Assembly (NCBI GenBank): GCA_963708025.1
Contig: CAVPSB010000018.1
Location: forward strand, 1-64,000
Reading direction: 5' to 3'
From: an uncultured Candidatus Rokubacteria bacterium
GTDB taxonomy: Bacteria > Methylomirabilota > Methylomirabilia > Rokubacteriales > DASRDR01
DNA: 64,000 nucleotides
The position numbers and the translations under genes are program-made. Positions 5,363 to 64,000 of the stretch are shown piece after piece (the stretch's first letter is position 1; every line of letters begins with the position of its first letter). Below the pieces are notes generated by a model, which was not told the origin of the DNA, did not search any database, and saw only the letters and a program-made list of their open reading frames with translations.

Positions 5363-5637
5363 GAGTCCCAACCACTCCCCCCCTGGACCCCCCGACCTGG
5401 GGGTGACGGGCACTCGCACCGCCGGGCCATCTGCGTCACGAGCCAGGTCGATCCGAGTCCCGACCACTCCCCCCCTGGACCCCCCCACCTGGGGGTGACG
5501 GGAACCCGCATCGCCGGGCCATCTGCGTCACGAGCCAGGTCGATCCGAGTCCCAACCACCGGATCGCCGGGACGCCTCGGTGCGTCCCGCCTCTCCGGCG
5601 GTCGCCCCCTGGACCCGCCCACCTGGGGGTCGCCCGG
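5363..5637. repeat. 92-bp tandem repeat (2 full units + partial) with C/G-run motif
   Basis: Units start at 5363, 5455, 5547; motif CCCCCTGGACCC..ACCTGGGGGT occurs three times. Confidence 0.85.
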
Positions 5638-14523: not shown

Positions 14524-15516
14524 ATGACGACGGTTCAGCTCCCGCGCAAGCACGAGTGGCAGGACCTCGAGGCCGAGCACGGCCGGTTCGTTGTCGAGCC
14601 CTTCGAGCCGGGCTTCGGTCTCACGATCGGCAACGCGTTCCGCCGGGTCCTCCTCTCGTCGATCGAGGGCGCCGCGCCCACCTGGGTCAAGATCGAGAAC
14701 GTCCTCCACGAGTTCTCCTTCCTGCCCGGCATGGTCGACGACACCCTCGACGTGTTGAACAACATCCGCAAGGTCGTGTTCAAGCTCCACGGGGAGCGGA
14801 GCCGGCTCATCCAGCTCCGGGCGACGGGCCCCGGCGAGGTCAAGGCCTCCGATTTCCAGACGGACGCCGACATCGAGGTGCTGAACGGGGATCGGCATCT
14901 GGCCACGCTGGACCGCGAGTCCGTGCTCGCGATGGAAGTGCAGGTCGAGAAGGGGCGGGGCTACGTCCCGGCCGAGAAGCGCGAGCTGGAGGGCCTGCCG
15001 GTCAACGCGCTGGTCCTGGACGCGGACTTCTCCCCGGTCCAGCGGGTCAATTTCCAGGTCGAGCCGTCGAAGCGGCACCCGGGGGCGGAGCGGCTCGTCC
15101 TCGAGATCTGGACGAACGGCAGCGTCACGCCGGAGGACGCGGTCGGCGAGGCCGCGCTGATCCTGGAGGACCACTTCAACCTGCTCAGCCGCTTCCCGCA
15201 GGGCGTGGAGCCGGAGGAAGAGGCGCCGATCGAGACCGAGAAGGTCGAGCTGAACGAGAACCTCTTCCGGAGCGTGGACGAGCTGGAGCTGTCAGTCCGC
15301 GCGTACAACTGTCTGAAGACCGCGAACATTCGGACCATCGCCGACCTGGTCCAGAAGAGCGAGGCCGAGCTCCTGAAGACCAAGAACTTCGGGAAGAAGT
15401 CCCTCAACGAGATCAAGGCGATTCTCGGGGAGATGGGGCTCTCGCTCGGCATGCGGCTCGATCCCGCCGAGCTCGAGCGGCTCAGGGCCCAGCGCGAGCG
15501 CGCCTTCGAGGCGTAG
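14524..15516 (+). CDS. rpoA: RNA polymerase alpha subunit (orphan copy)
   Basis: [33 protein letters not shown], alpha-[15 protein letters not shown]...[11 protein letters not shown]. Confidence 0.95.
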
Positions 15517-15517
15517 G

Positions 15518-15717
15518 GGGCGGGGCCGAGGAGCGTCGCAACGTTCATCTCGGTCGGGACGCACTCGGCCTGGCGGCCTCGCGTCCGTCCCGACCTATGG
15601 TCGTCCTCGGTCGTCGCCGATCCTCGGCGTACTCGGAGTACGCCTGCGGTCGGCGACTCCCTGCGTCCATCGGACGGCCTTCGGCCTGTGGGCGCTGCTC
15701 GCTCCTCGGCCCCGCCC
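15518..15717. repeat. ~200-bp palindromic intergenic repeat (MITE-like), copy 2, uninterrupted
   Basis: Terminal inverted repeats GGGCGGGGCCGAGGAGCG/CGCTCCTCGGCCCCGCCC; central hairpin GGCGTACTC-GGAGTACGCC. Confidence 0.85.
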
Positions 15718-33438: not shown

Positions 33439-33963
33439 GTGGAGAGACTCTTCGACCGGCTCGAGCGCTGGCTCGAGCCGGTCCTCGCCGCGCTGCTGAC
33501 GTTCATCACGATCGGGGTCTTCATCCAGGTCGTCCTGCGCTACGTGTTCGCGATGTCATTCCTGTGGGGCGAGGAGCTGTCCCTGTTCGCCTTCATCTGG
33601 TGCATCTTCCTCGGCACGGCCATCTGCTCCTCGCGCCACACCCATTTCAGCTTCGACATGTTCTCCGAGATCCTGCGCGGCCGTGCGGCGGGGGTGCAGC
33701 GGCTGATCGTTGATCTGTGCGTGCTCGCGGTCACCGTCGTGATCGTGGTCACGGGCTGGCAGTTTTCCACGCTCAGCCTGGCGCGCCTGTCCCCGGCGCT
33801 GGGCATCACGCTCTTCGTGCCGACGATCGTCATCCCGGTGAGCGGCGTCCTGATGTCGCTCGTGTGCCTCATGGACATCGTGCGCGATTGCCGTCAGATC
33901 GCGACCGGCGAGCGCCCCGGCGGCGCCTCGGGCGCCCGGCCCCCGATCGACTTCTCGGCATGA
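33439..33963 (+). CDS. dctQ: TRAP transporter small permease
   Basis: QVVLRYVF...WGEEL, 4 TMs. Confidence 0.92.
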   Translation: MERLFDRLERWLEPVLAALLTFITIGVFIQVVLRYVFAMSFLWGEELSLFAFIWCIFLGTAICSSRHTHFSFDMFSEILRGRAAGVQRLIVDLCVLAVTVVIVVTGWQFSTLSLARLSPALGITLFVPTIVIPVSGVLMSLVCLMDIVRDCRQIATGERPGGASGARPPIDFSA

Positions 33964-35258
33964 TGCATCCGCTCACTTTGCTGCTCGTGTCGATGTCGCT
34001 GCTGATGATCATCGGCGTCCCGGTCTCGTTCTCCCTGATCCTGTGCTCGCTGCTGGTCATCTGGGTGGCGGACTTGCCGCTGACGGTCGCGGTCCAGCAG
34101 ATGTTCACGGGTGTCAACGCGTTCACGCTGCTCGCGCTGCCGTTCTTCTTCCTCGCCGGCAACGTGATGACCGAGGGCGGCATCTCGGAGCGCCTGGTCA
34201 AGCTGGCGATGGCGCTGGTGGGCCATCTACGCGGTGGACTGGCGCACGTGAACGTCGTGGTCGGCATGTTCCTCTCGGGAATCTCCGGCAGCAGCACCGC
34301 CGACGCGGCCGCCATCGGCTCGATCTTCCACCAGGCGATGACGCGACGCGGATACGACGAGCGCTTTGCCGTGTGCTTGACCGCTTGCACCGCGACCATG
34401 GGCGCGGTCATTCCGCCGTCGATCCTGATGGTGATCTACGGCGCGACCGCCGGCGTCTCGATCGGGGCCTTGCTGATCGGCGGAATCCTGCCGGGAGTCC
34501 TGATGGGCCTCAGCTTGATGGTGCAGTCGCATTTCTTCGCGGTGAAGTACGGCTTTCCACGCGAGCATCCGAAGTTTCTCGGCTTGGCCGCCATCTGGGA
34601 CGGCATCAAGACCGCGGCGTGGCCGCTTGGCGTGCCCGTCATCATCGTCGTCGGCATGGTCGGCGGCGTCTTCACGCCAACCGAATCGGCATCGATCGCC
34701 GCGGTGTATTCCCTGTTCGTGACGCTCGTGGTCTTCCGCAGCCTGCGGCTGGGTCAGCTGAAGAAGCTCTTCGCCGAGACCACGATCCAGTTCTCGCAGG
34801 TGCTGTTCTGCCTCGGCGGAGCGTCGATCTTCGGCTGGCTGCTCGCGTTCTACCAGGTACCGGACATGGTGACCAGCTTCATCATGGGCTTCACGCGCGA
34901 CCCGATCGCCATCATGATCCTGATCGTCGTCGCGAACGTGCTGCTGGGGACGTTCATGGATGCCTTGCCGGCGATCCTCATCTTCGTTCCGATCATCCAC
35001 CCGCTCGCGGTCGCGGTCGGGATCCATCCGGTGCACCTGGGCGTCATCGTGGTGATGACGCAATCCTTCGGTCTGCTCACGCCGCCGCTCGGCATGGTCG
35101 CGATGACCGCCTGCGCGGTGGCGGGCGTGCCGATGGTGAAGATCCAGATGCTGCTCCACCTCATGATGATCCCACTGCTCATCGTCATCGTGCTGTGCGC
35201 GCTCGCCCCCTGGACCGTGCTCCTTCTCCCCCGGCTCCTGGTACCGAACTGGCTGTGA
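33960..35258 (+). CDS. dctM: TRAP transporter large permease
   Basis: LALPFF, GGLAHVNV, SGSSTADAA, IPPSI, FTPTE, TPPLG. Confidence 0.95.
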   Translation: MMHPLTLLLVSMSLLMIIGVPVSFSLILCSLLVIWVADLPLTVAVQQMFTGVNAFTLLALPFFFLAGNVMTEGGISERLVKLAMALVGHLRGGLAHVNVVVGMFLSGISGSSTADAAAIGSIFHQAMTRRGYDERFAVCLTACTATMGAVIPPSILMVIYGATAGVSIGALLIGGILPGVLMGLSLMVQSHFFAVKYGFPREHPKFLGLAAIWDGIKTAAWPLGVPVIIVVGMVGGVFTPTESASIAAVYSLFVTLVVFRSLRLGQLKKLFAETTIQFSQVLFCLGGASIFGWLLAFYQVPDMVTSFIMGFTRDPIAIMILIVVANVLLGTFMDALPAILIFVPIIHPLAVAVGIHPVHLGVIVVMTQSFGLLTPPLGMVAMTACAVAGVPMVKIQMLLHLMMIPLLIVIVLCALAPWTVLLLPRLLVPNWL

Positions 35259-35303
35259 ACGCCCGCATGGTTCGGGCGGCGGACGGGCAAGGCGCCCGGG
35301 ACG

Positions 35304-35332
35304 TTGACAGCCGCCGCCTAACCCCGTAATTT
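35304..35332 (+). promoter_or_regulatory. sigma70 promoter of the interrupted tRNA-Val
   Basis: TTGACA-N17-TAATTT, 10 nt upstream of the tRNA 5' end. Confidence 0.8.
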
Positions 35333-35342
35333 ACGTAGGCAC

Positions 35343-35381
35343 GGGCGGATAGCTCAGCGGGGAGAGCGCAGCCCTTACAAG
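35343..35381 (+). pseudogene. 5' half of tRNA-Val(TAC) (left att junction)
   Basis: Identical to 60584-60622, ending just after the anticodon loop CTTACAA. Confidence 0.92.
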
Positions 35382-35400
35382 CCTGGCCGGCGAACCGGAG

Positions 35401-35440
35401 CCCCTCGGTAAGTTCATGGCTTACCGAGGGGTTTTTGTTT
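35401..35440 (+). terminator. Rho-independent terminator
   Basis: CCCCTCGGTAAG-N7-CTTACCGAGGGG followed by TTTTTGTTT. Confidence 0.8.
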
Positions 35441-35487
35441 CGCGCGTTGGCTGGTGGGGGCTGGATTTGGGCCGGTTATGGGCCGTG

Positions 35488-35511
35488 ACGGGCATAGTTT
35501 CGGGCATAGTC
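35488..35511 (+). other. Putative integrase arm-type site (CGGGCATAGT x2)
   Basis: 24-bp identity to 60508-60531. Confidence 0.7.
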
Positions 35512-35608: not shown

Positions 35609-35815
35609 ATGACGCTGACCATTGAGATCGAGCGGGAAGAGGACGGGCGCTGGATCGGCGAGGTGCCGGAGCTATCCGGTGTCCTCTGCTACGGCGGAAC
35701 CCGGGACGAGGCCATCGCGCGCGTCCAGGCCCTCGCTCTCCGAGTCATCGCCGAACGCTTGGAGCACGGAGAGGCGCCCGCCGAACTGCTGACCGTCTCG
35801 TTCGAAGCGGCGTGA
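35609..35815 (+). CDS. hicB: HicB-family antitoxin
   Basis: IEREEDGRWIGEVPEL.GV..YG.T.DEA. Confidence 0.85.
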   Translation: MTLTIEIEREEDGRWIGEVPELSGVLCYGGTRDEAIARVQALALRVIAERLEHGEAPAELLTVSFEAA

Positions 35816-35960
35816 GCCGCTGGCCCTCGGCCAAGGCGCGGCGGGTCCTGGCCACTCTCCTCCGGATCGGCTGGTCCGTGAAGAGGCAATCGGGCTCCCA
35901 CCGAACCCTGGGGCGCGAAGGCTGGCCCGACTTCGTCTTCGCGTTTCACGACGACGAGAG
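35812..35960 (+). pseudogene. hicA: HicA-family toxin, 3'-truncated
   Basis: LLRIGW..KRQSGSH..L...FAFHD, then homology stops. Confidence 0.78.
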
Positions 35961-41135: not shown

Positions 41136-41439
41136 GTCCGTCACTGGTCCGGGCGGCGGACGAGGTCGCCACCTCGGCCGGCCGCGTTGCCGGTGGTGTC
41201 CGGCGTGAAGGAGCCGCGCCGTGCACGTTTTCTGGCCCCCTTCCCCCGGCCGGTCATCCCGCTCGCTCCGTGCCCACCGTGCCCAGACTGTATCGCACCG
41301 CCGTCTTGCCCGGCAAGGGCGCCGGCATCGCGGGGATGGGGACCGGAACCCGTTGCTGACCGGACACGGGCGCGCTCGACCCTCGGACATCGCCGTCGCC
41401 GTGAAGTGGCTCCATGCCGCGTGCGCGATGCTTTGTGCG

Positions 41440-41617
41440 ATGCCGCCATTGCGGCCTCAACGAGGGCCGTCCGCAGGTGCACGTTGCCTTTGCGGACGCC
41501 CGCGCGCTTGCGCTTACCGGCGCTCTCGTTATTGTCGGGACACACACCCGCCCACGCCGCGGCGTGCGGGGCGCGGCGAAACACGGTCATGTCCGTCCCC
41601 AATTCGGCCACGATCAC
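41440..41617 (-). pseudogene. IS110-family transposase fragment
   Basis: IVAELG.DM..F...AWAGVCP.NNESAGK...GN.HLR.ALVEAA. Confidence 0.8.
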
Positions 41618-41639
41618 CGCCGCGACGACCCGGCCGGCA

Positions 41640-42099
41640 GACGCTCTACCTGGTCACGCTCGGCTTCGCCGCGGGGTCGATCGCCGTCATGGGCTTCGTC
41701 TGCGAGGCGACGGAGGTGGGCCGGGCCTTCCGGGCGATCCGGGAGGACGAGGTGCTGGCCGAGAGCCTCGGGATCAACACGACCGGGTACAAGCTCCTGG
41801 CGTTCGCGCTCAGCTCGGCGTTCGCCGGGCTGGCCGGCACGCTCTATGCCTACGACGTCCAGCTCGTCAGCCCGTCGGTGGCGTCGGCGGCGATGACCTC
41901 CCTCGTCATCGGCATGGCCGTGTTCGGCGGCCTGGGGACGATCTGGGGGCCGGTCCTGGGCGCACTCCTGCTCTTCTCGGTCAGCGAGGGCCTGCGGTTC
42001 GTCGGCGTGGTCTATAATCTCGTCGCGGTCGGCCTGGTGATCGTGCTCTTCGTGATCTTCCTCCCGCGGGGCCTGGCCGGTCTGAGGCCCGTAGCATGA
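41640..42099 (+). pseudogene. Branched-chain amino acid ABC permease (LivM-like) C-terminal fragment
   Basis: GRAFRAIREDE..AESLGIN...YKL.AF; GGLGTIWGP. Confidence 0.8.
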
Positions 42100-42109
42100 G
42101 CGTGACCGA

Positions 42110-42930
42110 AGCGTTGAGTGCCCCGGAGACGAGGTGTCGCGGCGGGCTGTTCTCTCAGCGCGGCCGTGCGGGGATCGCGCAGGCGCAGGATCGACACGGC
42201 CGCCTGGACGAGCAACCAGCGCATCCGGGTATTGCCCGCCTTGGTGATCCGGCCGCGCCGTTGGCTCTCCCCCGAGCTCAGCTCCCTCGGGACGAGGCCG
42301 AGATACGCCTCCACCTCATGTGCCCGGCGAAAGCGCTGCGCGTCATCGATCGTGGCCACGAAGGCCGCCGCCGTGACCGGCCCCACGCTGGGGATGGTCT
42401 GCAAGCGCTGCACGCGCGTATCCGGGCGCGTGACGTGCTCGATCACCGCGTCCGAGTGGGCGAGCTGCTGATCGACGAGCCGCATCACCGCCAGCAAGGG
42501 CGCCACCTCCGAGAGCAGGCGGCCCGGCGGCGACAGCGCCATCACCCGCCGACTGAGAGTCTCCGCACTCCCCGTGGGCACGCGCCAGCCGTGCCGGCGC
42601 AGCAACGCCCGGGTCAGGGCGATGTATCCGGTGCGCGTCCGGACCACGGCATCGCGCACCGCCAAGCGGCCCCGGACATGCCGCTGCGCGTCGGACAGCC
42701 GATGGGCGGGGCGATACGCGCCGAGCAGACAGGCCTCCTGTAGCGCCCGGGCATCCCGCCGATCGGTCTTGACCTTCCGGGTCCGCGTGGCATACATCGG
42801 CGCGAAGTTCGGGTCCGCCACCACGACCTCGTGGCCCAAGGCCTCGAGGCACCGCGCCACCCATTCACTCTCCGTCGAGGCTTCGACGAGGATCCGGGCT
42901 CGCGGCCGGCCGCCCAACACCGCCGCGAAC
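42110..42930 (-). pseudogene. IS110-family transposase lacking both termini
   Basis: EAST, KTDRRDA, IPSVGP.TA, YLGLVP...SSG, ITKAGN. Confidence 0.88.
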
Positions 42931-43081
42931 GGCTGGGGCCTAAGGCGGCCACGCGCCATTTGGGATCCCATCACCGCGGTGCTCCCTCGATAAATGACGG
43001 ATCCCGGGGCGGCGGCGCATTCAGCGCATGCCACGCAGCCCCCTGGACCGCCTACCACGGTGTGTCCCACCACCGGAGGAC

Positions 43082-43342
43082 CTAACCGACCCAGGGCCTG
43101 AAGACATGGTCCCGGTGCAAGAACGTCGCGCGCCAGCCCTCGGGATCACTGGTGAGAGCCAGGTCGTAGCCGTGGCGGACCATGCCGGTGGTGATCGCGC
43201 CGATGCCCGTCCATGTATTCAGCCAGCGCCGGAGCGCGTGAAGGGCGGGCGGGACTGGCTCCGGTATGCGGACCAGCCTGAAGCCTAACAGTGGAGAAGG
43301 GTCGGTATTTCCATCCGGTTGGGAATGGCCTCCGCCGTCCAT
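43082..43342 (-). CDS. Hypothetical protein or fragment
   Basis: Protein-like stretch LRRWLNTWTGIG.I..GM...GYDL.LT...GWRATF; termini uncertain. Confidence 0.35.
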   Translation of the reverse strand: MDGGGHSQPDGNTDPSPLLGFRLVRIPEPVPPALHALRRWLNTWTGIGAITTGMVRHGYDLALTSDPEGWRATFLHRDHVFRPWVG

Positions 43343-50822: not shown

Positions 50823-50933
50823 CCCGGGCCGCGGAGGCCGCCAGGCGCTGGCGTGAGGCCCAAGGGCTCCCGCCGGCGGGCTCCGCCCTTCCGTCGCTTT
50901 CGTCTCTTCCGTCGCCTACACAAAGCAGCGGAA

Positions 50934-51363
50934 TAAGAACGACGAAGGCCGCGTCGTCTACCTGACCCCGGAGCTCCGGACCCTCCTCGAGGCCCAGCTC
51001 GAGCGGATCCGTGCGGTCGAGCGGCGGACCGGCCGCATCATCCCCTTCCTGTTTCCCTACCTCAGCGGACCGCGGCGCCTCGGCCAGCGCCGACGTGACT
51101 ACCGGAAGGCCTGGGAGGCGGCGTGCACGTCCGCGGGCGTCGCTGGTCGGGTCCGCCACGACTTCCGCCGGACCGCAGTCCGCAACCTGGTCAACGCTGG
51201 TGTGCCAGAGCGGGTGGCCATGACGATCACCGGGCACAAGAGCCGAGCCGTGTTCGACCGCTACCACATCGTGAGCCCGGGCGACCTCCAGGAGGCCATG
51301 CGAAAGCTCGCGGGCACGTTTCCGGGCACGTTGGCCCCCGCGATTGGCCCCCGCGAAGGTTGA
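50934..51363 (+). pseudogene. Tyrosine integrase C-terminal fragment (paralogue of 59730-60570)
   Basis: KNDEGRVVYLTPEL...RHDFRRTAVRN...TGHKSRAVFDRYHIV; carries its own GGGCACGTT x2 repeat. Confidence 0.88.
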
Positions 51364-52157: not shown

Positions 52158-52304
52158 GTTCCCTCGGGCTCCTAGTGTACCTTGAAACGCGGCCATGCGT
52201 TCACAAGGCTTGGCTTCTCGGCGCGCGTCGTCCAGGCGCACGAGCCCGAGCTCCTCGGAAGCGATGCTCGTCTGGCCGGGTCGAATCGATGAATCACGAG
52301 AACG

Positions 52305-53030
52305 GAACGTAGGAAATGCTAGCGACGTTTTTCTCGCCCTCTCCCTGGCCCCGCATCCCCTCGCTCTCGCCTTGGCCCCCGCAGCCCGACTGGAGCGCCG
52401 CGCCGGCCCGCGCGGCAAGGGCGTTCGGAGGTCGGAGCGGTGGCGCGGAAGCCGCCCGGCGGGGTCGGCAGGCGGACAGGGGAGGGGCCGGGCGGGGGGG
52501 CCGGCGGATCGGGGGGCGCGCGGGTCAGGCGGCGGGGACGGCGTGGCCCGGCGGCGGCTGGGCGGCGAGCCCCAGCGCCGCCAGCAGCCGCCCCACCGCG
52601 TGGGGCTCCGTCACCGCCCCGAGGACCCGGCGCGGGCCCCCGCACCGCTCACACACCAGCACCTGGATGGCGAACACTCGGCGGAGGAGCCGAGCCCAGG
52701 TCCACCGCCCCGGTGACCGCGCGCCTGCGTCCGCGCCAGGGTCGTCAGGGGTGGGCCGCACCACGATCGCGGATCGCCATTGGGCACGCGGGGCGAGGAG
52801 TCCATGGTAGGCGAGCAATGGCCGGCGCGGCGGGGGCACGAGGGCGGCCAAACGCTCCAACCACTCCAGCGGGTCCAGGAGCAGCGCCGTCGCCCCATCG
52901 CTCCACGGACGTCTGAACTCGTAGAGCAACTGCCCGTCCGAGCTCTCCGTCAGGCACTCGAGTGCCAGGGGCGGGCGCAGGATGGAGCGGCACACCGTCT
53001 CCAGTTGATCCCGGCGGCGCGCCGGCACGG
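52305..53030 (-). mobile_element. IS91/ISCR-like element remnant 1: transposase C-terminus plus ori end
   Basis: 52525-53028 encodes RPPLA..L...R.WSDG.T...PLE.L.RLAALVP.PR.....YHG..AP...WA.LL.RVF...C..CGG; ends ...GCATTTCCTAC-GTTC. Confidence 0.85.
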
Positions 53031-54631: not shown

Positions 54632-55511
54632 TTAGAGTAGTCGCTGTTGCCGACGGCTGTACGCCATGCGGCCCGCCACGTACGTGGCCTTCACCGCGCG
54701 GTCGTCGCCCATCGTCATCTGGATGAACAGCGCCTCCTCGATGTCGCTGCAGGAGCGCATCCGGTACTCGATGACCGGGGTCGACTTGAGGTCGAGCACG
54801 ACCAGATCCGCTTCCATGCCGGGCGCGATGCTGCCGATCCGGTCCTCGAGGTAAAGGGACTGCGCGCCGCCGCGCGTCGCGCGGTAGAACGCATGCCCGG
54901 CGGAGAGAGGATTGCCGTTCAGCTGCGCGGCCTTGTAGGCCCCGTTGAGCGTCTGCAGCATCGAGAACGAGGTGCCTGCGCCCAGGTCGGTGCCGAGGCC
55001 CACGCGCACCGGACGCTCGGGCTTCTTCGCGTTCTTGAGGTTGAACAGACCGCTGCCAAGGAACGCGTTCGACGTGGGGCAGTGCGCGAGCGCGGTGCCG
55101 GTCTCGTGGCAGCGCGCGAGCTCGGCCTCGGTGAGCCAGATGCCATGGCCGAAGATCGCGCGGGGGCCGAGCTGCTGGTAGTGGTCGTACGTGTCGAGAT
55201 AGCCCTTGCGCTGCGGGTACAGCTGCTTCACCCAGGCGACCTCGCCTCGGTTCTCGGAGACATGCGACTGCAGGTAGGTGCCGGGGTGCTCGCGCCACAG
55301 CGCGCCGGCGAGCTCCATCTGCTCGGGCGTGCTGGTGGGCGCGAAGCGCGGCGTCACGCTATAGAGCGCGCGGCCCCTGCCGTGCCATTTGCGGATCAGC
55401 GCCTTCGCTTCGTCGTAGCCCTTCCTCGCCGTGTCGGTGAGCGCGGCCGGGGCGTTGCGGTCCATCAGGACCTTGCCGGCGACCGTGCGCATGCCGAGCG
55501 CCTCGGCTTCC
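54632..55511 (-). pseudogene. guaD: Guanine deaminase, 5'-truncated by an IS91 ori end
   Basis: GKVLMDRNAP, VTPRFAP, QSHVSEN, HCPTSN.FLGSG, GTDLGAG, GDDR. Confidence 0.88.
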
Positions 55512-55715
55512 GAACGTAGGAAATGCTAGCGACGTTTTTCTCGCCCTCTCCCTGGCCCCGCATCCCCTCGCTCTCGCCTTGGCCCCCGCAGCCCGACTGT
55601 AGCGCCGCGCCGGCCCGCGCGGCAAGGGCGTCGGGAGGTCGGAGAGGTGGCGCGGAAGCCGCCCCGCGGGGTCGGCAGGCAGACGGGGGAGGGGCCGCGC
55701 GGGGGGGCCGGCGGA
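55512..55715 (-). mobile_element. IS91/ISCR-like ori end remnant 2
   Basis: ~200 bp near-identical to 52305-52508. Confidence 0.85.
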
Positions 55716-55776
55716 GCGACGATAGTGCGATCGTCGGCGCCGGCCCCGGAGCCGGACGCCAGCGAGGGAGACGGCG

Positions 55777-56837
55777 ATGGAGCAGACGCTCGACAAGCAG
55801 CGGACACAGGAGTTCGCCCGGAAGCTCTTCGGGCTCTACACGAGCGGCATCCTCACCCTGATGGTGGACATCGGCCACAAGACGGGTCTCTTCGAGGCGG
55901 TGGCGTGCGGCCGGGGGACCAGCCGGGAGATCGCCGAGCGTGCGGGGCTCGAGGAGCGCTACGTGCGCGAGTGGCTCGGGGCGATGGCGACGGGCGGCAT
56001 CGTCGAGTACGCGGCGGCGTCGCGGACGTTCACGCTGCCGCCCGAGCACGCCGTCTGCCTGACCGGCACCTCGAGCCGTAACCTCGCCGCCGGCAGCCAG
56101 GGCCTCCTGATGCTCGCCAAGCGTCTGCCCCGGGTCGTCGAGTGCTTTCGCCGGGGCGGCGGCGTCCCCTACTCCGAGTTCCGGCCGGACTTCACCGAGG
56201 CGATGGACGCCTCCTGGCGTCTCCTCTACGACGGGCTCCTGATCAAGGGCTTCCTGCCGGCCGCCAAGGAGCTGCCCGAGCGGCTACAGGCCGGCATCCG
56301 GGCTCTGGACCTCGGCTGCGGGACCGGGCACGCGATCAACCTCATGGCCCGCGAGTATCCCCGCTCCACCTTCGTCGGCTATGACCTCGGCGAGGATGCG
56401 ATCACCCGCGCCCGGGCCGAGGCCCAATCGCTGGGACTCGGGAACGCTCGCTTCGAGGTCCGGGACGTGGGGCGGTTGCCCGCCGAGCCGAAGTTCGATC
56501 TGATCACGTCCTTCGACGCCATCCACGACCAGCGCGATCCGGCGGCGGTTCTCCGCTGTGCGGCGGACGCCCTCGCCCCCGACGGGGTTTACCTCATGGT
56601 CGAGCCGAAGGCCTCGAGCAACCTCGAGGAGAACATCGGTAACCCCTTCGCCCCCTACCTCTACGGGATGAGCGTGCTCCACTGCATGACGTGTCCCTCG
56701 CCGAGGGCGGGGCGGGGCTCGGGACGGCGTGGGGCGCAGAGACGGCGCGCCGGATGCTGGAGGAGGCCGGCTTCACGTCCATCGCCGTGGTGGACGCGCC
56801 CGGTCCCCAGAACAGCATCTACATCTGTCGCCGCTGA
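55777..56837 (+). CDS. Class I SAM methyltransferase with N-terminal wHTH (frameshift near 56690)
   Basis: ERYVREWL, LDLGCGTG, FDAIHD, SVLHCMT; C-terminus in a shifted frame. Confidence 0.85.
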
Positions 56838-58924: not shown

Positions 58925-59377
58925 GAACGTAGGAAATGCTAGGAACCTAGGAAATGCTAGCGACGTTTTTCTCGCCCTCTTCCTGGCCCCGCATCCCCTC
59001 GCTCTCGCCTTGGCCCCCGCAGCGCGACTGTAGCGCCGCGCCGGCCCGCGCGGCAAGGGCGTCGGGAGGTCGGAGCGGTGGCGCGGAAGCCGCCCCGCGG
59101 GGTCGGCAGGCAGGCGGGGGAGGGGCCGGGCGGGGGGGCCGGCGGATCGGGGGGCGCGCGGGTCAGGCGGCGGGGACGGCGTGGCCCGGCGGCGGCTGGG
59201 CGGCGAGCCCCAGCGCCGCCAGCAGCCGCCCCACCGCGTGGGGCTCCGTCACCGCCCCGAGGACCCGGCGCGGGCCCCCGCACCGCTCACACACCAGCAC
59301 CTGGATGGCGAACACTCGGCGGAGGAGCCGAGCCCAGGTCCACCGCCCCGGTGACCGCGCGCCTGCGTCCGCGCCAG
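58925..59377 (-). mobile_element. IS91/ISCR-like remnant 3 (ori end with duplicated terminus)
   Basis: ~435 bp near-identical to 52305-52739; 18-bp terminal duplication. Confidence 0.85.
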
Positions 59378-59585
59378 CCGAGCCCTTCCCGCCGCGGATC
59401 TTGATCGGCGGCACCACCAGCAGGAACTCGTAGACGCCCGCCGCCGCCAGCCCCTCCAGCCGGAAGTTCTCGATGATGAAGATCCCGTGGTCGGCGATCA
59501 GCAGCATGTGGACCGGGAAGACCTGGAATACCGGCGTGAAGACGACGGGCGGCCGCTTCTCGAAGGTCAGGGTGTCGGGGGCTAG
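59378..59585 (-). pseudogene. Cyclase/kynurenine formamidase-family C-terminal fragment
   Basis: PVH..L....GI.IIEN..LE.LA...YEF.....P.K..G..GS; in frame with the IS91 tail. Confidence 0.75.
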
Positions 59586-59729
59586 CCAACACAATGCCCC
59601 TTCTCAGCCATGGGCCCCCGGGCGGGGGCCGGCCGGCTGGGACGACATCGCGGTGGGCGTGACGGCCCCGCTGGTGGCACTCGCCCTGGGCGGCCTGCGT
59701 CGACAGGCTCCGGTGGGTCCGCGGCACTA

Positions 59730-60570
59730 CCGCGTGAAGCACCTCGAGCGGTTCTTTGCCGGACGGCGCGTCGCGAGTCTCGGCCAGGCTGAGGTGGATG
59801 CCTACATCCTGGCGCGACACCGGCGGGGCGCGGCCGCCGGGACGATTCGCCGCGAGCTCGGCACGTTGGTCAAGATGCTGAGGCTGGCGTACACGGCCGG
59901 GAAGCTGGTCAGGCTGCCGGTGCTCGAGAAGCCCAAAGAGGGGGCCCCGCGCGAAGGGTTCTTCGAGCGCGAGCAGTACGAGGCGGTGCGGCAGCACCTC
60001 CCGGCCGATCTCCAGCTGGCGACGGCCATCGCCTACACCTACGGCTGGCGGACGCAGAGCGAGGTCCTCATCCTCGAGCGCCGTCAGCTGGATCTGGAGG
60101 CGGGCACGCTCCGGCTGGACCCGGGACAGACGAAAAACGACGACGGTCGCCTCGTCTATCTCACCCCCGAGTTGAAGACGCTCCTGGGCGCGCAACTCGA
60201 GCGGATCCGAGTGGTGGAGCGGCGAGCCGGGCGCATCATCCCGTATCTGTTTCCCTATCTGGGTGGCGCGCACCGCCTCGGTCAGCGTCGGCGGGACTAT
60301 CGGAAGGCGTGGGTCACGGCGTGCGAGAAGGCCGGGGTGGTGGGGCGCGTCCGCCACGACTTCCGGCGGACCGCCGTCCGCAACATGGTGAACCGCGGGG
60401 TGGCCGAGCGGGTCGCCATGACGATCACGGGCCACAAGACGCGCAGCGTGTTCGATCGCTACCACATCGTGAGCCCGCGCGAGCTCGAGGACGCGGCCCG
60501 GCGGCTCACGGGCATAGTTTCGGGCATAGTCCGGGCGGCGGACGTTGACAGCCGCCGCCTGACCCCGTAA
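59730..60570 (+). pseudogene. Island tyrosine integrase, 5'-truncated
   Basis: GWR..E, TKN, RHDFRRT, TGHKT...FDRY; N-terminal part replaced by unrelated DNA. Confidence 0.88.
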
Positions 60571-60573
60571 TTT
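60545..60573 (+). promoter_or_regulatory. sigma70 promoter of intact tRNA-Val, embedded in the integrase 3' end
   Basis: TTGACA-N17-TAATTT; the integrase TAA stop (60568-60570) is the first half of the -10 box. Confidence 0.82.
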
Positions 60574-60583
60574 ACTTAGGCAC

Positions 60584-60659
60584 GGGCGGATAGCTCAGCG
60601 GGGAGAGCGCAGCCCTTACAAGGCTGAGGTCGCAGGTTCGAGCCCTGCTCCGCCTACCA
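60584..60659 (+). tRNA. tRNA-Val (TAC)
   Basis: 76-nt cloverleaf: GGGCGGA/TCCGCCT acceptor, CAGCC-CTTACAA-GGCTG anticodon arm, GCAGG-TTCGAGC-CCTGC T arm, encoded CCA. Confidence 0.97.
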
Positions 60660-60889
60660 GCGAATCTCCTGCTCTTGCGCGGCTACGGCGCTCACACCAT
60701 GCGCCCACACCTATCGCTCGAGAGCAGGAGTTCGCAGCCCCGAGCCATCGAGCCCCCACCATGTGGTCTGCCCCCGTCTCCCCTTGCGGCCCTTCACGTC
60801 TTCGCAGCGAAGATGCCGCGTCCGGCCCTGGACGGTTAGACCCAGCGTGAAGCCACCGCGACACTGGTGCCGATGAGGTTTCCAACCGG

Positions 60890-61024
60890 ACGGGCCGCGC
60901 GCGTCCAGGAGTTACTGACCGCGAAGTGTTCGGCGCTGGAGGCGCTGGCGAAGCGCCTTATGGAGAAGGAGGTCGTGAGCCGCGAGGCGCTGGGCTCACT
61001 GCTGAGCGGAACCCACCCCCGATA
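60890..61024 (+). pseudogene. Possible FtsH C-terminal remnant
   Basis: LEALAKRLMEKEVV.RE.L resembles the FtsH tail; short and frameshifted. Confidence 0.35.
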
Positions 61025-61575
61025 GCCGTCGTCTGCTCCTCCTGAGGCCCCCTGAGGGTCCTGCCCCGCCCTCCGCCTCAGGAGAATGGTGCAGACGGAT
61101 CATTGCGAGGTCCGTCCACTGCGCGAAGATAGGCGTAAGACGAGCCCGCAACTGGCCGGAAGGCGAGGGGGACGCGATGGGGGCCGAGACAGCGACTAGC
61201 TAGGCCAGCCGAAAGGTGTCCGTTCCTGGTGCCCGTGATGGCCGACGGGCTCTGGCTGCGCCCCACGAGCGCATATTGCCGGCGGCCGAATGGCCGCGTG
61301 CGGGTGCCCGCGGTGTTGACGGTCGACTGCATCTGCACGACGCGGGCGCATCTGGTTTGTGCCGGGTACCTCGAGACGTCGGACCAGGCCGCGGCGGCGA
61401 GCGCCGCCTGACCCGCAGTGGGACGTCCCGGCGCCAGTGGGCATCGGCTCCTGATGCCCCGGCGTTGACAGTGCCCGCGCGTGCAAGCTCACGCGAGTGC
61501 CGGCATGAGCGGCGCGCATAGCCGGCCCGACTTCCGCATGGGTTCAAGACAGTCGAGCACCTCATTGGGTCAGGC

Positions 61576-64000
61576 TCATCCGTCTGAACGCTCTTCCTCA
61601 CGCGCCCGGGACTTCTCGCTGTCGCCGCGTGAGCCAAGCGTCACGACGAGGCCGAGCGGCAGGAGCGCGAGCAGCGCACCGGCCACGGCCAGCGTCCAAT
61701 CTCCGAAGTGCAGCGGCTCGAGGTGAAGGACGCCCGCGAGCGGCGGCGTCTGCACGAGGACGATCGCGGACGCGACGGTGGCGGCCGACACTAACCAGGC
61801 GGCGGCCGTGCGGAGCCGGCTCAGCGCCGCCGTCAGGAAGCCACTGGCCAGCGCGAGCGTCACCAGCGCCGCCGCCCGTCCGTGCTCCACACCACCGGGC
61901 TCGCTCGCGCTCCGCACGTATGCCAGGATCACCGCCACGGCGATGATCCCGCCGGTCATCGCGATCAGAAGCCAGTCGCCCCCCCGAAACAGGATCGCCC
62001 GCTGCGGCGCCGCCGCTCGCTGGAGCGGGCCAGCGGGCAATTCCTGGAACACGAGCAATGCCGAGGGATGGATGATCAGCTCGACCCAGACGATGTGCAC
62101 CGGCAGGTAGAGCAGCGGGTAGCCGAGCAGAGGAATCGCGAGCGCGGAGACGACGAAGGGCGCATGAATCATCAGGAGATACTGGAAGCTCGTTCTGAGG
62201 TTCGCGAAGAGCTGGCGGCCCTCGCTGATGGCCCGGACGATCGTGCGGAAGTTGTCGTCGAGCAGCACGATCGCCGCCACCTCGCGGGCGCTCCGCGTGC
62301 CACGCTCGCCCATCGCGATGCCGACGTCGGCCGCCTGGAGCGCCGGCACGTCGTTCACCCCGTCGCCGGTCACCGCCACGATCTCGCCGGCCTCTTGGAG
62401 GCCTCGAACGAGCGTCAGCTTCTGGGACGGCGTGGCCCGGGCGATCACGTCGACGCGCTTGAGCTGCTCCAGCTCGCCGCGGGCCGCAAGGTGCTCCATC
62501 TCGTCGCCGGTCACGACGCGCGGCACCGCCCCGCCGAGCCCGATCTCTCGGGCCACCGCGCGCGCCGTCAGCGGATGGTCGCCCGTCACCATGACGACAC
62601 GAATCCCGGCCGCGTGGCATGTGCGGACGGCTTCGGCCACGCCCTCGCGGACCGGATCCTCGAAGGCCAGCAGGCCGGCCAGCCGAAACCCCGCCGTCGG
62701 CTCCTCTCCCGGGCCGGCTCCGGTCTCCACGGGCCGCCAGGCACAGGCGATGACCTTGTGCCCCTCCTCGGCGAGGGCGGCCACCCGATCCAGCACGCGA
62801 GAGCGCTCGGTCTCGACGGCATCGCACATGCCGACGATCGTCTCCGCCGCGCCCTTGGTCACGGCGATGACCGCGCCATCCCCTCGCGAACGATCGCCGT
62901 CTCACGCTTCCGGCTCTCGGTGAACGGGAAGACGGCCAGACGCTCGACGCCCTCCCGGCAGATCTCGATCCGTCCGGCTTCGGCGATGACGGCGAGGTCG
63001 AGCGGATCGCCACTCTCGGCGCGGGAGGCGAGCGCCGCCAGCCGAAGCAGGGCCGCGTCGTCGACGCCGCCCGCGGATCGGAGATGCGTCAGGCGGAGCC
63101 GGCCTTCGGTGATCGTGCCGGTCTTGTCCGAGCAGATGGTCGTGACGCGCCCGATGTTCTCCACGGACACCGCTCGTCGCACCAGCGCCTGGCGTCTCGC
63201 GAGCCGGTAGACGCCCACGCCGAGGAAGAAGGTGAAGACGACGGGGAACTCCTCCGGCATCGCCGCGACGGCGAGCGTCACGGCGCTCACCAGCGCATCG
63301 AGCCAGCCGTAACCCTGGCGGAGGCGGACCCCGGCCAGGATCAGACAGATGACCGCGGCAATGGCGAGAAGCAGCCCGACGAGGTTCTTGATGGCCTCTG
63401 GAGCGGCGTGAGCGCCCGCCGGCCTCGGACGGCCGACTGGACGATCTCACCGTAGAGAGTCTCGGCGCCCGGTGAAGACGACGCGCAGCAGGGCCTCGCC
63501 CGTCAGCAGGCGCGTTCCCGCGAACCCCCAGTGCAGCGTCTCGACCAACGGTTCGTCCCCCGGGCCGACAGGCTCCTGCAGGGGGCGCTTCGGGACGGGG
63601 TATGCCTCGCCGGTCAACGTCGACTCGTCGGCCTGAAGCTCGGATCCGGCGACGACGAGGCCGTCGGCCGGAAAGGGCTGGCCCGACGCGACGACCGCCA
63701 GGTCCCCCGGCACCAACTCCAGCGCGCTCAATTCGACGCGGCTACCGTCACGCACGACCATTGCCCTCGCGGCGAGGCGGGTCCTGAGTCCCTCGGCGGA
63801 GGCCTGACTTCGCCAGTGGAGGAAGGCGTCCATCCCGACGAGTGGTAGGAGAGCGACGAGCAGGGTCAGGGCTTCTGCGAAGTCCCCGATCCCAGCATAG
63901 AGCAGACTCGTCGCACCCAGGAACCAGAGCATCGGATCCTTCGCGGTGTCACGAGCGAGCTCCCGCCAGCGGGCAGGCGGCGCTTCGACGATCGCGTTGG
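61576..64000 (-). CDS. Cation-transporting P-type ATPase (several frameshifts; 5' end outside window)
   Basis: DESTLTGE, PEE, CSDKTGT, KGA, DP.R, TGD, GDGVND; frame breaks near 62860, 63400, 63460. Confidence 0.9.

Follow-up and report, generated by a model that had tools for sequence, protein, structure and literature searches.

The window analysed here is the opening 64 kb of a 624-kb contig from a metagenome-assembled genome (MAG) of a soil Rokubacteria bacterium (8.17 Mb, 71% G+C). It contains a single tRNA gene, tRNA-Val(TAC), and ARAGORN found no second Val-TAC gene among its 50 calls for the whole genome, which include several over-long and doubtful ones. The tRNA gene lies 13 nt past the stop codon of an integrase gene on the same strand, with no terminator in between. 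Far to the left, a second copy of the tRNA 5′ half and of its upstream region follows a short vestige of an integrase tail, which itself begins 8 nt after the stop codon of a DctM gene (Table 1). The roughly 25 kb between the two copies is a mosaic that includes IS110 transposases, gene fragments (UvrD-like, sigma-54-activator, AMP-ligase, and ABC), a resolvase fragment, an HTH_17 gene, a RepB-primase-like ORF, and a weak HicB/HicA pair.

Table 1. Features of the tRNA-Val island and its left flank, with positions in the 64-kb window.
Feature	Position	Strand	Remarks
DctM-type TRAP transporter permease gene (left host flank)	33717..35258	+	Pfam DctM, E 7.5e-105
Vestige of older integrase tail beside attL	35267..35298	+	32 nt, read against the right-hand sequence
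attL repeat copy	35299..35385	+	TTGACA (35304-35309)-N17-TAATTT (35327-35332) and tRNA-Val nt 1-43
P′-arm hairpin and TTTTTGTTT	35401..35440	+	Perfect 12-bp stem (35401-35412/35420-35431), 7-nt loop
P′-arm tandem repeat, GGGCATAGT x2, 12-nt period	35488..35511	+	Candidate arm-type integrase sites
Second, paralogous integrase, C-terminal half	50857..51363	+	Pfam Phage_integrase, E 1.4e-9; tblastn
Integrase ORF, 365 aa as listed	59473..60570	+	Pfam PF00589, residues 174-331
P-arm tandem repeat, GGGCATAGT x2	60508..60531	+	Within the integrase tail, codons T-G-I-V-S-G-I-V
attR repeat copy	60540..60626	+	Probably element-borne as far as the anticodon loop
Promoter-like TTGACA-N17-TAATTT	60545..60573	+	TTGACA 60545-60550, TAATTT 60568-60573; ends 10 nt before tRNA nt 1
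Functional tRNA-Val(UAC)	60584..60659	+	ARAGORN; anticodon loop 60615-60621, the probable crossover

The integrase carries a Phage_integrase domain (PF00589) above the cut-off (E 1.4e-11), and its catalytic residues R113, K141, H215, R218, H241, and Y250 are invariant (alignment A1). Homology to the rest of its clade begins near 59728, and compared with full-length clade integrases of ~380 aa the window copy is without the N-terminal ~95–115 residues, which comprise the arm-binding part and part of the core-binding part; the original prediction had rightly taken the 5′ end of this gene to be deleted. The N-terminal domain of the clade occurs nowhere on this contig, and the only one in the genome lies on contig C44, in the sole full-length clade integrase of this genome, that of the tRNA-Arg element. 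The N-terminal arm-binding and core-binding part is required for attP-dependent integration, and with no arm-binding domain in its integrase the island has very likely lost its mobility. The second, paralogous integrase shares 74% amino acid identity with the main copy and comes with a separate set of tandem GGGCACGTT repeats and a TTGAC, past which the sequence jumps to a copy of 35790–35905 (repeats D2 and D3). This stretch may be what remains of the deleted inner junction of a two-member tandem array.

The two copies of the direct repeat are identical at 84 of 87 positions (97%), and each begins 44 nt ahead of the tRNA and runs through the 3′ strand of the anticodon stem, whose last base is tRNA nt 43. 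When an 84-nt pattern of the repeat was typed in, it had two matches with 3 mismatches, and two or more matches occurred in 0/100 shuffles. A repeat that includes the –35/–10 region and the tRNA 5′ half had been described from the sequence, with the intact tRNA at the integrase end, and both points are borne out, although the length is 87 bp and not the 83 bp first given. One mismatch in the left copy, at 35382, falls in the 3′ stem strand, and ARAGORN called no tRNA at this copy. Directly to its left, the vestige GTTCGGGCGGCGGACG matches GTCCGGGCGGCGGACG at 60530–60545, and its frame, run on into the repeat, reads M-V-R-A-A-D, an 18-nt insert, and V-D-S-R-R-L-T-P-stop. The presence of an integrase-tail vestige left of attL indicates that the site had hosted such an element before.

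Short tandem repeats flank the duplicated region on its outer sides. Just left of the right-hand copy, the integrase tail contains the unit GGGCATAGT-TTC-GGGCATAGT, and the same 24 nt (24/24 identical) recur ~100 nt right of the left-hand copy. These repeats are candidate arm-type sites on both arms of a reconstructed attP. Both arms carry such repeats in all four elements examined (tRNA-Val here, tRNA-Arg, L039/L070, and L044/L075), and the tandem repeat starts 71–76 nt upstream of the tRNA in 24/45 co-directional loci of the clade, as read from the locus table. In addition, directly 3′ of the displaced tRNA half lies a hairpin followed by a U-run, a predicted structure that resembles an intrinsic terminator. 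The fold of 35343–35450 has a free energy of –53.7 kcal/mol (z –3.75), equally stable folds occurred in 0/200 shuffles, and the promoter/terminator scan made no call at the hairpin. At L075, the displaced Val(CAC) half likewise has a hairpin and a U-run after it, and arm repeats come next.

The same layout recurs across the integrase clade, which occurs in Rokubacteria and Acidobacteria. Each locus was scored by the tRNA adjoining the integrase stop, as co-directional when the tRNA 5′ end is at the stop and as convergent (the classical layout) when the tRNA 3′ end is there. Among 37 loci in species-representative genomes, 11 are co-directional (stop at –9 to +32 nt relative to the start of the tRNA), 9 are convergent, one of them (L063) on the basis of where the match ends, and 17 have no adjacent tRNA. 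Among 80 metagenome loci, kept out of 546 relatives, the corresponding numbers are 30 (stop at –38 to +83 nt on the same scale), 17, and 23, with 10 having too little downstream DNA. Within this genome alone, the clade is found at seven places, four of which are co-directional (Val, Arg-CCT, Lys-UUU, and Sec), one convergent (Asp), and two without an adjacent tRNA. The original prediction had proposed a survey of the clade, and the recurrence of the layout is in its favour. Moreover, the same tRNA can be entered from both sides. tRNA-Val(TAC) is co-directional at L077–L080 and convergent at L083 and L088, and tRNA-Arg(TCT) is co-directional at L085, L089, and L092 and convergent at L090 and L093; the integrases that enter the same tRNA in both orientations are each ~62–70% identical to that of the window. 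In a tree of 18 full-length or near full-length integrases, a small sample from which the frameshifted L044 and short fragments were left out, orientation changed at least 2–3 times on well-supported branches.

The promoter-like stretch overlaps the last nine codons of the integrase, stop included. As noticed at the outset, the codons D-V-D-S-R-R-L-T-P-stop spell TTGACA-N17-TAATTT, so that the TAA stop (60568–60570) provides the leading three bases of TAATTT. Because TAATTT shares just 3/6 positions with TATAAT, a consensus scan for promoters left the site uncalled. Among 13 aligned tRNA-Val upstream regions, of which 11 come from relatives and two from this genome, the motif TTGA(C/A)N-N17/18-TAnnnT is seen by eye in 11, the exceptions being relatives G012, which has CTGACA, and G018, which has no motif. 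The element copy starts at –39, within the range of host tRNA promoters (–39 to –50, found by regex at 10/50 ARAGORN calls), which agrees with the predicted placement of the –35 and –10 boxes. A strict promoter regex that had to end 3–20 nt upstream of the tRNA matched 10/45 co-directional loci versus 0/45 when the search interval was shifted 60 nt upstream, and 0.04 matches are expected by chance per shuffled set. The Acidobacteria members have no TTGAC upstream of the tRNA. The host copy displaced at L044/L075 has an upstream sequence unlike that of the element copy, yet both spell TTGAC-N17-TAGATT. When the loci are lined up by their tRNA starts, 29–32/45 of them share G-C-A-C at –4 to –1, which would fit a transcription start 1–3 nt before the mature end.

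Relatives in which the integrase has decayed further retain this stretch. Where the integrase is down to 41 aa or less, as in G013, only the promoter-like stretch remains upstream of the single-copy tRNA. Upstream of tRNA-Val, G012 (92 aa) and G013 (41 aa, E 1e-12) have clear integrase remnants, the matches are weak for G009 (E 0.26) and for G002 (E 0.077), the latter located at a contig start, and at the protein level none was found upstream of tRNA-Val in seven further relatives (G004, G008, G010, G011, G014, G016, and G018). The notion of a fossil integrase tail in most relatives was dropped, as the tail is clear only in G012 and G013. From its conservation and position, the embedded motif is likely the promoter of the tRNA gene.

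Part of this conservation may serve recombination and not transcription. The best-conserved positions of the 45 loci, A at –21 (39/45) and A at –22 (28/45), are located inside the promoter spacer, where sigma-70 does not need them, and the A/T-rich block at –23 to –10 resembles an IHF-type site, whose consensus is YAANNNNTTGATW. At ≤2 mismatches, this consensus occurs in 16/45 loci compared to 3.2 expected, and 11 of the 16 matches start at –23 or –22. The block is also midway between the arm repeats (~–66) and the core (~+35), and integrase-free host tRNA promoters have, by eye, no TAA at that place. The block could accordingly be chiefly an attP bending site, with the promoter look as a secondary or dual use, although the tRNA cannot do without a promoter and nowhere else is there space for it, the Rokubacteria members conserve the –35 TTGAC, and bending and promoter roles are compatible. 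Bending as the chief role is considered unlikely, albeit a reading that deserves some weight.

Another view is that the tRNA is made mainly by read-through of the integrase or upstream DNA and cut from the transcript, with TTGACA/TAATTT being incidental or minor. The two genes are co-directional and separated by a terminator-free gap of 13 nt, the –10 box is weak, and a 196-nt contig from a soil metatranscriptome covers 60467–60659, from the integrase tail to the end of the tRNA, with 6 differences. If this contig represents RNA, it would derive from read-through out of the integrase rather than from a start at the embedded promoter; it hints weakly at read-through, as RNA libraries can contain DNA and contigs cannot reveal transcript starts. 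In no sequencing run did the share of words sampled from the stretch exceed 0.32, and the uncovered parts are uninformative. On the other hand, the integrase here has neither its 5′ end nor any promoter of its own, and in relatives it is down to 41 aa or less, yet this is the sole tRNA-Val(UAC) of the genome. The motif is also positionally fixed and conserved across diverged copies, and a tRNA supplied mainly by read-through appears quite improbable.

The position of the crossover can be deduced from the extent of the duplicated block in different elements of the clade. In four elements, the identity block ends 0–5 nt past the anticodon loop, whereas the upstream end varies relative to tRNA nt 1, from –44 (tRNA-Val here) to –4 (tRNA-Arg(CCT) of this genome), –1 (tRNA-Val(CAC) of another Rokubacteria MAG), and 0 (tRNA-Ser of a Vicinamibacterales chromosome). 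Because the end near the anticodon loop is constant across elements, the crossover is placed there, and therefore the integrase tail, the promoter-like stretch, and tRNA nt 1–~38 would be element DNA. This supports the central claim of the original prediction, namely that the island, integrated upstream of the tRNA with a crossover at the anticodon loop, supplies the tRNA 5′ half together with its upstream region. The island has the displaced 5′ part upstream and its own 5′ part beside the integrase, and this 5′-fragment geometry is also found at tRNA-Arg and tRNA-Lys in this genome and at L039 and L044. Displaced 5′ fragments confirm integration at the Arg and Lys genes here, at the Ser gene (31-kb island), and at the Val-CAC gene (2.4-kb island); a displaced fragment was sought at L051 and none was found.

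The empty attB site was searched for in 40 relatives, among which DctM is never beside tRNA-Val and no island-free copy of the locus was found. The match to the DctM region ends at the stop codon in five relatives (G008, G010, G012, G015, and G020) and 8 nt beyond it in G018, in each case without a tRNA behind it, and the flanks of tRNA-Val in the 40 relatives map to other contigs of this genome. In G011, tRNA-Val has no integrase, a divergent gene starts ~60 nt upstream, and the neighbourhood is different. As no syntenic empty site was found among these relatives, attB is deduced from the internal logic of the locus only. The unpublished genome G038 contributes one row to the tallies of this search, and none of the claims made here depends on it.

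Taken jointly, these observations are best explained if 35386–60583 is the decayed remnant of one or two tandem elements that integrated in reversed orientation into tRNA-Val(UAC), to which we assign a probability of roughly 80%; the structural interpretation of the island is well supported. That the repeat is instead an assembly artefact or a plain segmental duplication and no att pair is hardly credible, even in a MAG with an estimated contamination of 8.18%, since the flanks of the two copies are unique, the copies differ at 3 positions, and the contig is 624 kb long, observations that rule against the assembly duplication named in the original prediction as its refutation; moreover, the repeat breaks off precisely at the anticodon stem and has arm-type repeats on each outer side, the same geometry is found in other genomes, and contigs of soil DNA join the integrase tail and the tRNA 5′ half in one piece (X1 record 4).

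Under the reversed integration favoured here, the attP of the element would have consisted, in order, of the integrase 3′ tail with two arm-type repeats, the promoter-like –35/–10 stretch, tRNA nt 1–38, a terminator-like hairpin, and two further arm-type repeats. Recombination in the anticodon loop of tRNA-Val(UAC) would move the promoter and 5′ half that were there before to attL, 25 kb further upstream, and leave a working tRNA-Val whose promoter region and 5′ half are element DNA. The embedded motif would then drive the tRNA from a start 1–3 nt before the mature 5′ end, and the hairpin would stop transcripts from the displaced promoter or from the episomal one.

Two parts of the original prediction concerning the integrase 3′ end are not supported. 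A conserved C-terminal ‘VD-x5-6-stop’ motif had been proposed, but integrase tails diverge completely beyond the conserved helix that follows the catalytic tyrosine, and the stop falls in three different frames, which places the conservation at the DNA level. In the first frame the stop is at about –22 and ends 20–21 nt before the tRNA, in the second it lies in the –10 box, 12–14 nt before the tRNA, and in the third it is the TAG of tRNA nt 7–9, ending 9 nt inside the tRNA. The stops cluster at A/T-rich signals because DNA with 71% G+C closes its frames first there. It had also been suggested that the promoter explains why the 3′ end of the integrase survives. However, C-terminal-only fragments adjoin tRNA genes at four convergent loci (L052, L057, L060, and L063) as well as at four co-directional ones (L051, L056, L061, and L055, the last being that of G012). 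Because such stubs persist in both orientations, the promoter is not needed to explain survival, for which proximity to an essential gene is enough; the promoter adds ~45 nt that cannot be lost.

Elements of reversed polarity have a history in the literature. Zhao and Williams, in 2002 (J Bacteriol 184:859), reportedly described a bacterial element in reverse orientation and thereby gave the first account of a 5′ fragment. The same work is among the sources cited where recombination distal to the 5′ end is called ‘considerably less frequent,’ in the relevant section of a later article (PMC6563490). The Islander survey, in the portion of its text that deals with fragment types, lists 159 of 3919 islands with a 5′ tDNA fragment versus 3760 with a 3′ fragment (PMC4383910). 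The arrangement had been regarded as a departure from the established rule, yet going by these passages it does not represent a new principle, and the island is a further case of a known, rare class. What is new here is the presence of arm repeats in the integrase tail and on the other attP arm, the hairpin, the clade-wide layout, and entry from either side. The Islander signature, as given in the same portion of text, consists of an intact tDNA, a cognate end fragment in the same orientation, and an integrase between them, within 2–200 kb (PMC4383910). The locus has all of these, with the intact tRNA beside the integrase gene, the fragment (35343–35385, + strand) upstream in the same orientation, and ~25 kb in total, and it shares with the Islander 5′ class the anticodon-centred crossover and the tyrosine integrase. 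Unlike that minority class, the reversed layout is the commoner one in this clade (30 co-directional versus 17 convergent of 80 metagenome loci), and close relatives within the clade differ in the orientation in which they use one and the same tRNA. No paper on a both-orientation integrase clade or on Rokubacteria islands came up in a limited search of open-access text.

Other systems share single features with this island. Islands specific to dusA, according to the part of the article that treats their insertion, enter the 5′ end of the target gene, replace it, and bring putative –35/–10 boxes (Farrugia et al., 2015; PMC4482086), and on that account they are similar in replacing both the 5′ end and the putative promoter of the target. 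They differ in having a protein-coding target, an integrase of another family, and no tRNA half. The integrases of Mx8 and SSV extend across attP, as stated in passing in the Islander text (PMC4383910), and attP likewise overlaps the integrase ORF here. Unlike in Mx8 and SSV, only the P arm is overlapped (arm repeats and promoter-like stretch), the stop at 60568–60570 preceding the crossover at 60615–60621, and in relatives the stop reaches no further than tRNA nt 7–9. As the ORF stops 45 nt before the crossover, integration neither alters nor splits the integrase. An attP of the lambda type has arm-type sites on both arms, sites for bending proteins, and a core at the overlap region. The arrangement reconstructed here appears similar, with putative arm-type repeats in tandem ~100 nt on either side of the core and an A/T-rich block midway. 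The integrase has no close named relative in the phage collection searched, its best matches (D3 and P22-like) reaching only ~26% identity.

In the usual account, elements carry the 3′ part of the tRNA gene so that the host promoter is left where it was. A clade that more often adopts the reverse solution implies that this rule is a tendency and no mechanical limit, and the clade supplies matched pairs of att sites with which the determinants of orientation can be tested. For island-finding software and for the mining of integrases and att sites, attP must in such cases be defined so as to cover the integrase tail. Hosts, for their part, can have essential single-copy tRNA genes whose expression signals are second-hand DNA of mobile elements.

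The 3′ side of the tRNA gene appears to be occupied as well. A 45-nt copy of its 3′ part (nt 30–74), 96% identical, is located outside the window at contig positions 72297–72341, where no tRNA was called. The 11.6 kb in between (60660–72296) contain P-type ATPase pseudogenes, a two-component system, and cytochromes, and an integrase was sought in this interval and none was found. A 3′ fragment of this kind is what a classical island on the right would leave, and if such an island is present, the working tRNA-Val consists of two element-borne halves. These observations can be combined with the clade-wide data into one broader reading, which we regard as tentative and as falling slightly short of an even chance. 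In this scenario, the attP core would have flipped repeatedly relative to the arms, which would let close relatives approach one anticodon loop from opposite sides. Reversed members would carry the arm sites, the bending-site/–10 block, the tRNA 5′ half, and the terminator as a compact module that acts as recombination scaffold and tRNA promoter at once. Serial turnover of such elements would have replaced the native promoters of several single-copy tRNA genes, and tRNA-Val would owe its 5′ half to the left island and its 3′ half to the classical island on the right. The same double occupancy is seen at the tRNA-Ser gene of the Vicinamibacterales chromosome.

The best-conserved feature of the block lying 23 to 10 nucleotides upstream of the tRNA (window 60561-60574) is a TAA at -23 to -21, as judged from the 45 co-directional loci, at which an integrase of the same clade ends against the 5' end of a same-strand tRNA gene. 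An A occupies position -21 in 39 of these loci, and the TAA is missing from host tRNA promoters that have no integrase. Taken together, the TAA and the -10 element resemble an IHF-type consensus.

Elsewhere in this genome, the clade's only full-length integrase adjoins tRNA-Arg(CCT) on its upstream side (C44:6698-8254), and a separate contig carries the displaced 5' half of this tRNA together with the matching tandem repeat of the P'-arm, the attP arm beyond the displaced half (C19:340736-340909). The tRNA-Arg(CCT) element may still be mobile. Tandem GGGC(A/G)-type motifs with a 12-nt period, followed by TTGAC, occur at C48:4665-4734 and C48:23544-23613, upstream of tRNA-Arg(TCT) and tRNA-Leu(TAG). 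Neither of these motif sites retains an integrase, and both may be what remains of such an element at additional tRNA genes.

A contig from run X15, an RNA library, joins the 5' half of tRNA-Val to P'-arm-like sequence at the anticodon loop, and this half is accompanied by a native-looking promoter, TTGACC-N17-GAGAAT. This contig, from a metatranscriptome library, represents an attL-type junction from a related strain.

To the right of tRNA-Val, a displaced 3' fragment of the gene lies at C18:72297-72341. Two sets of pseudogene pieces of P-type ATPases occupy the interval between the two, along with a two-component system and cytochromes, and an integrase is absent from it.

Repeats, transposase genes and the interval right of tRNA-Val (window positions unless marked C18)
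Feature	Position	Remarks
Non-coding-looking element (~200-400 nt), two copies	1029-1426; 15513-15717	93-98% identical, 14.4 kb apart
92-nt unit, repeated twice head to tail	5363-5546	95% identity
IS110-family transposase gene and second fragment of one	41144-43145	inside island
300-nt repeat, three copies	52304-52603; 55511-55810; 58942-59241	76-97% identical
tRNA-Val to 3' fragment (locus L005)	C18:60660-72341	11.6 kb; window 60660-64000 and beyond

One of the three 300-nt repeat copies is adjoined by a Y2-transposase fragment. The rightmost copy (58942-59241), immediately upstream of the truncated integrase, is a possible trace of the event by which that gene lost its 5' end.
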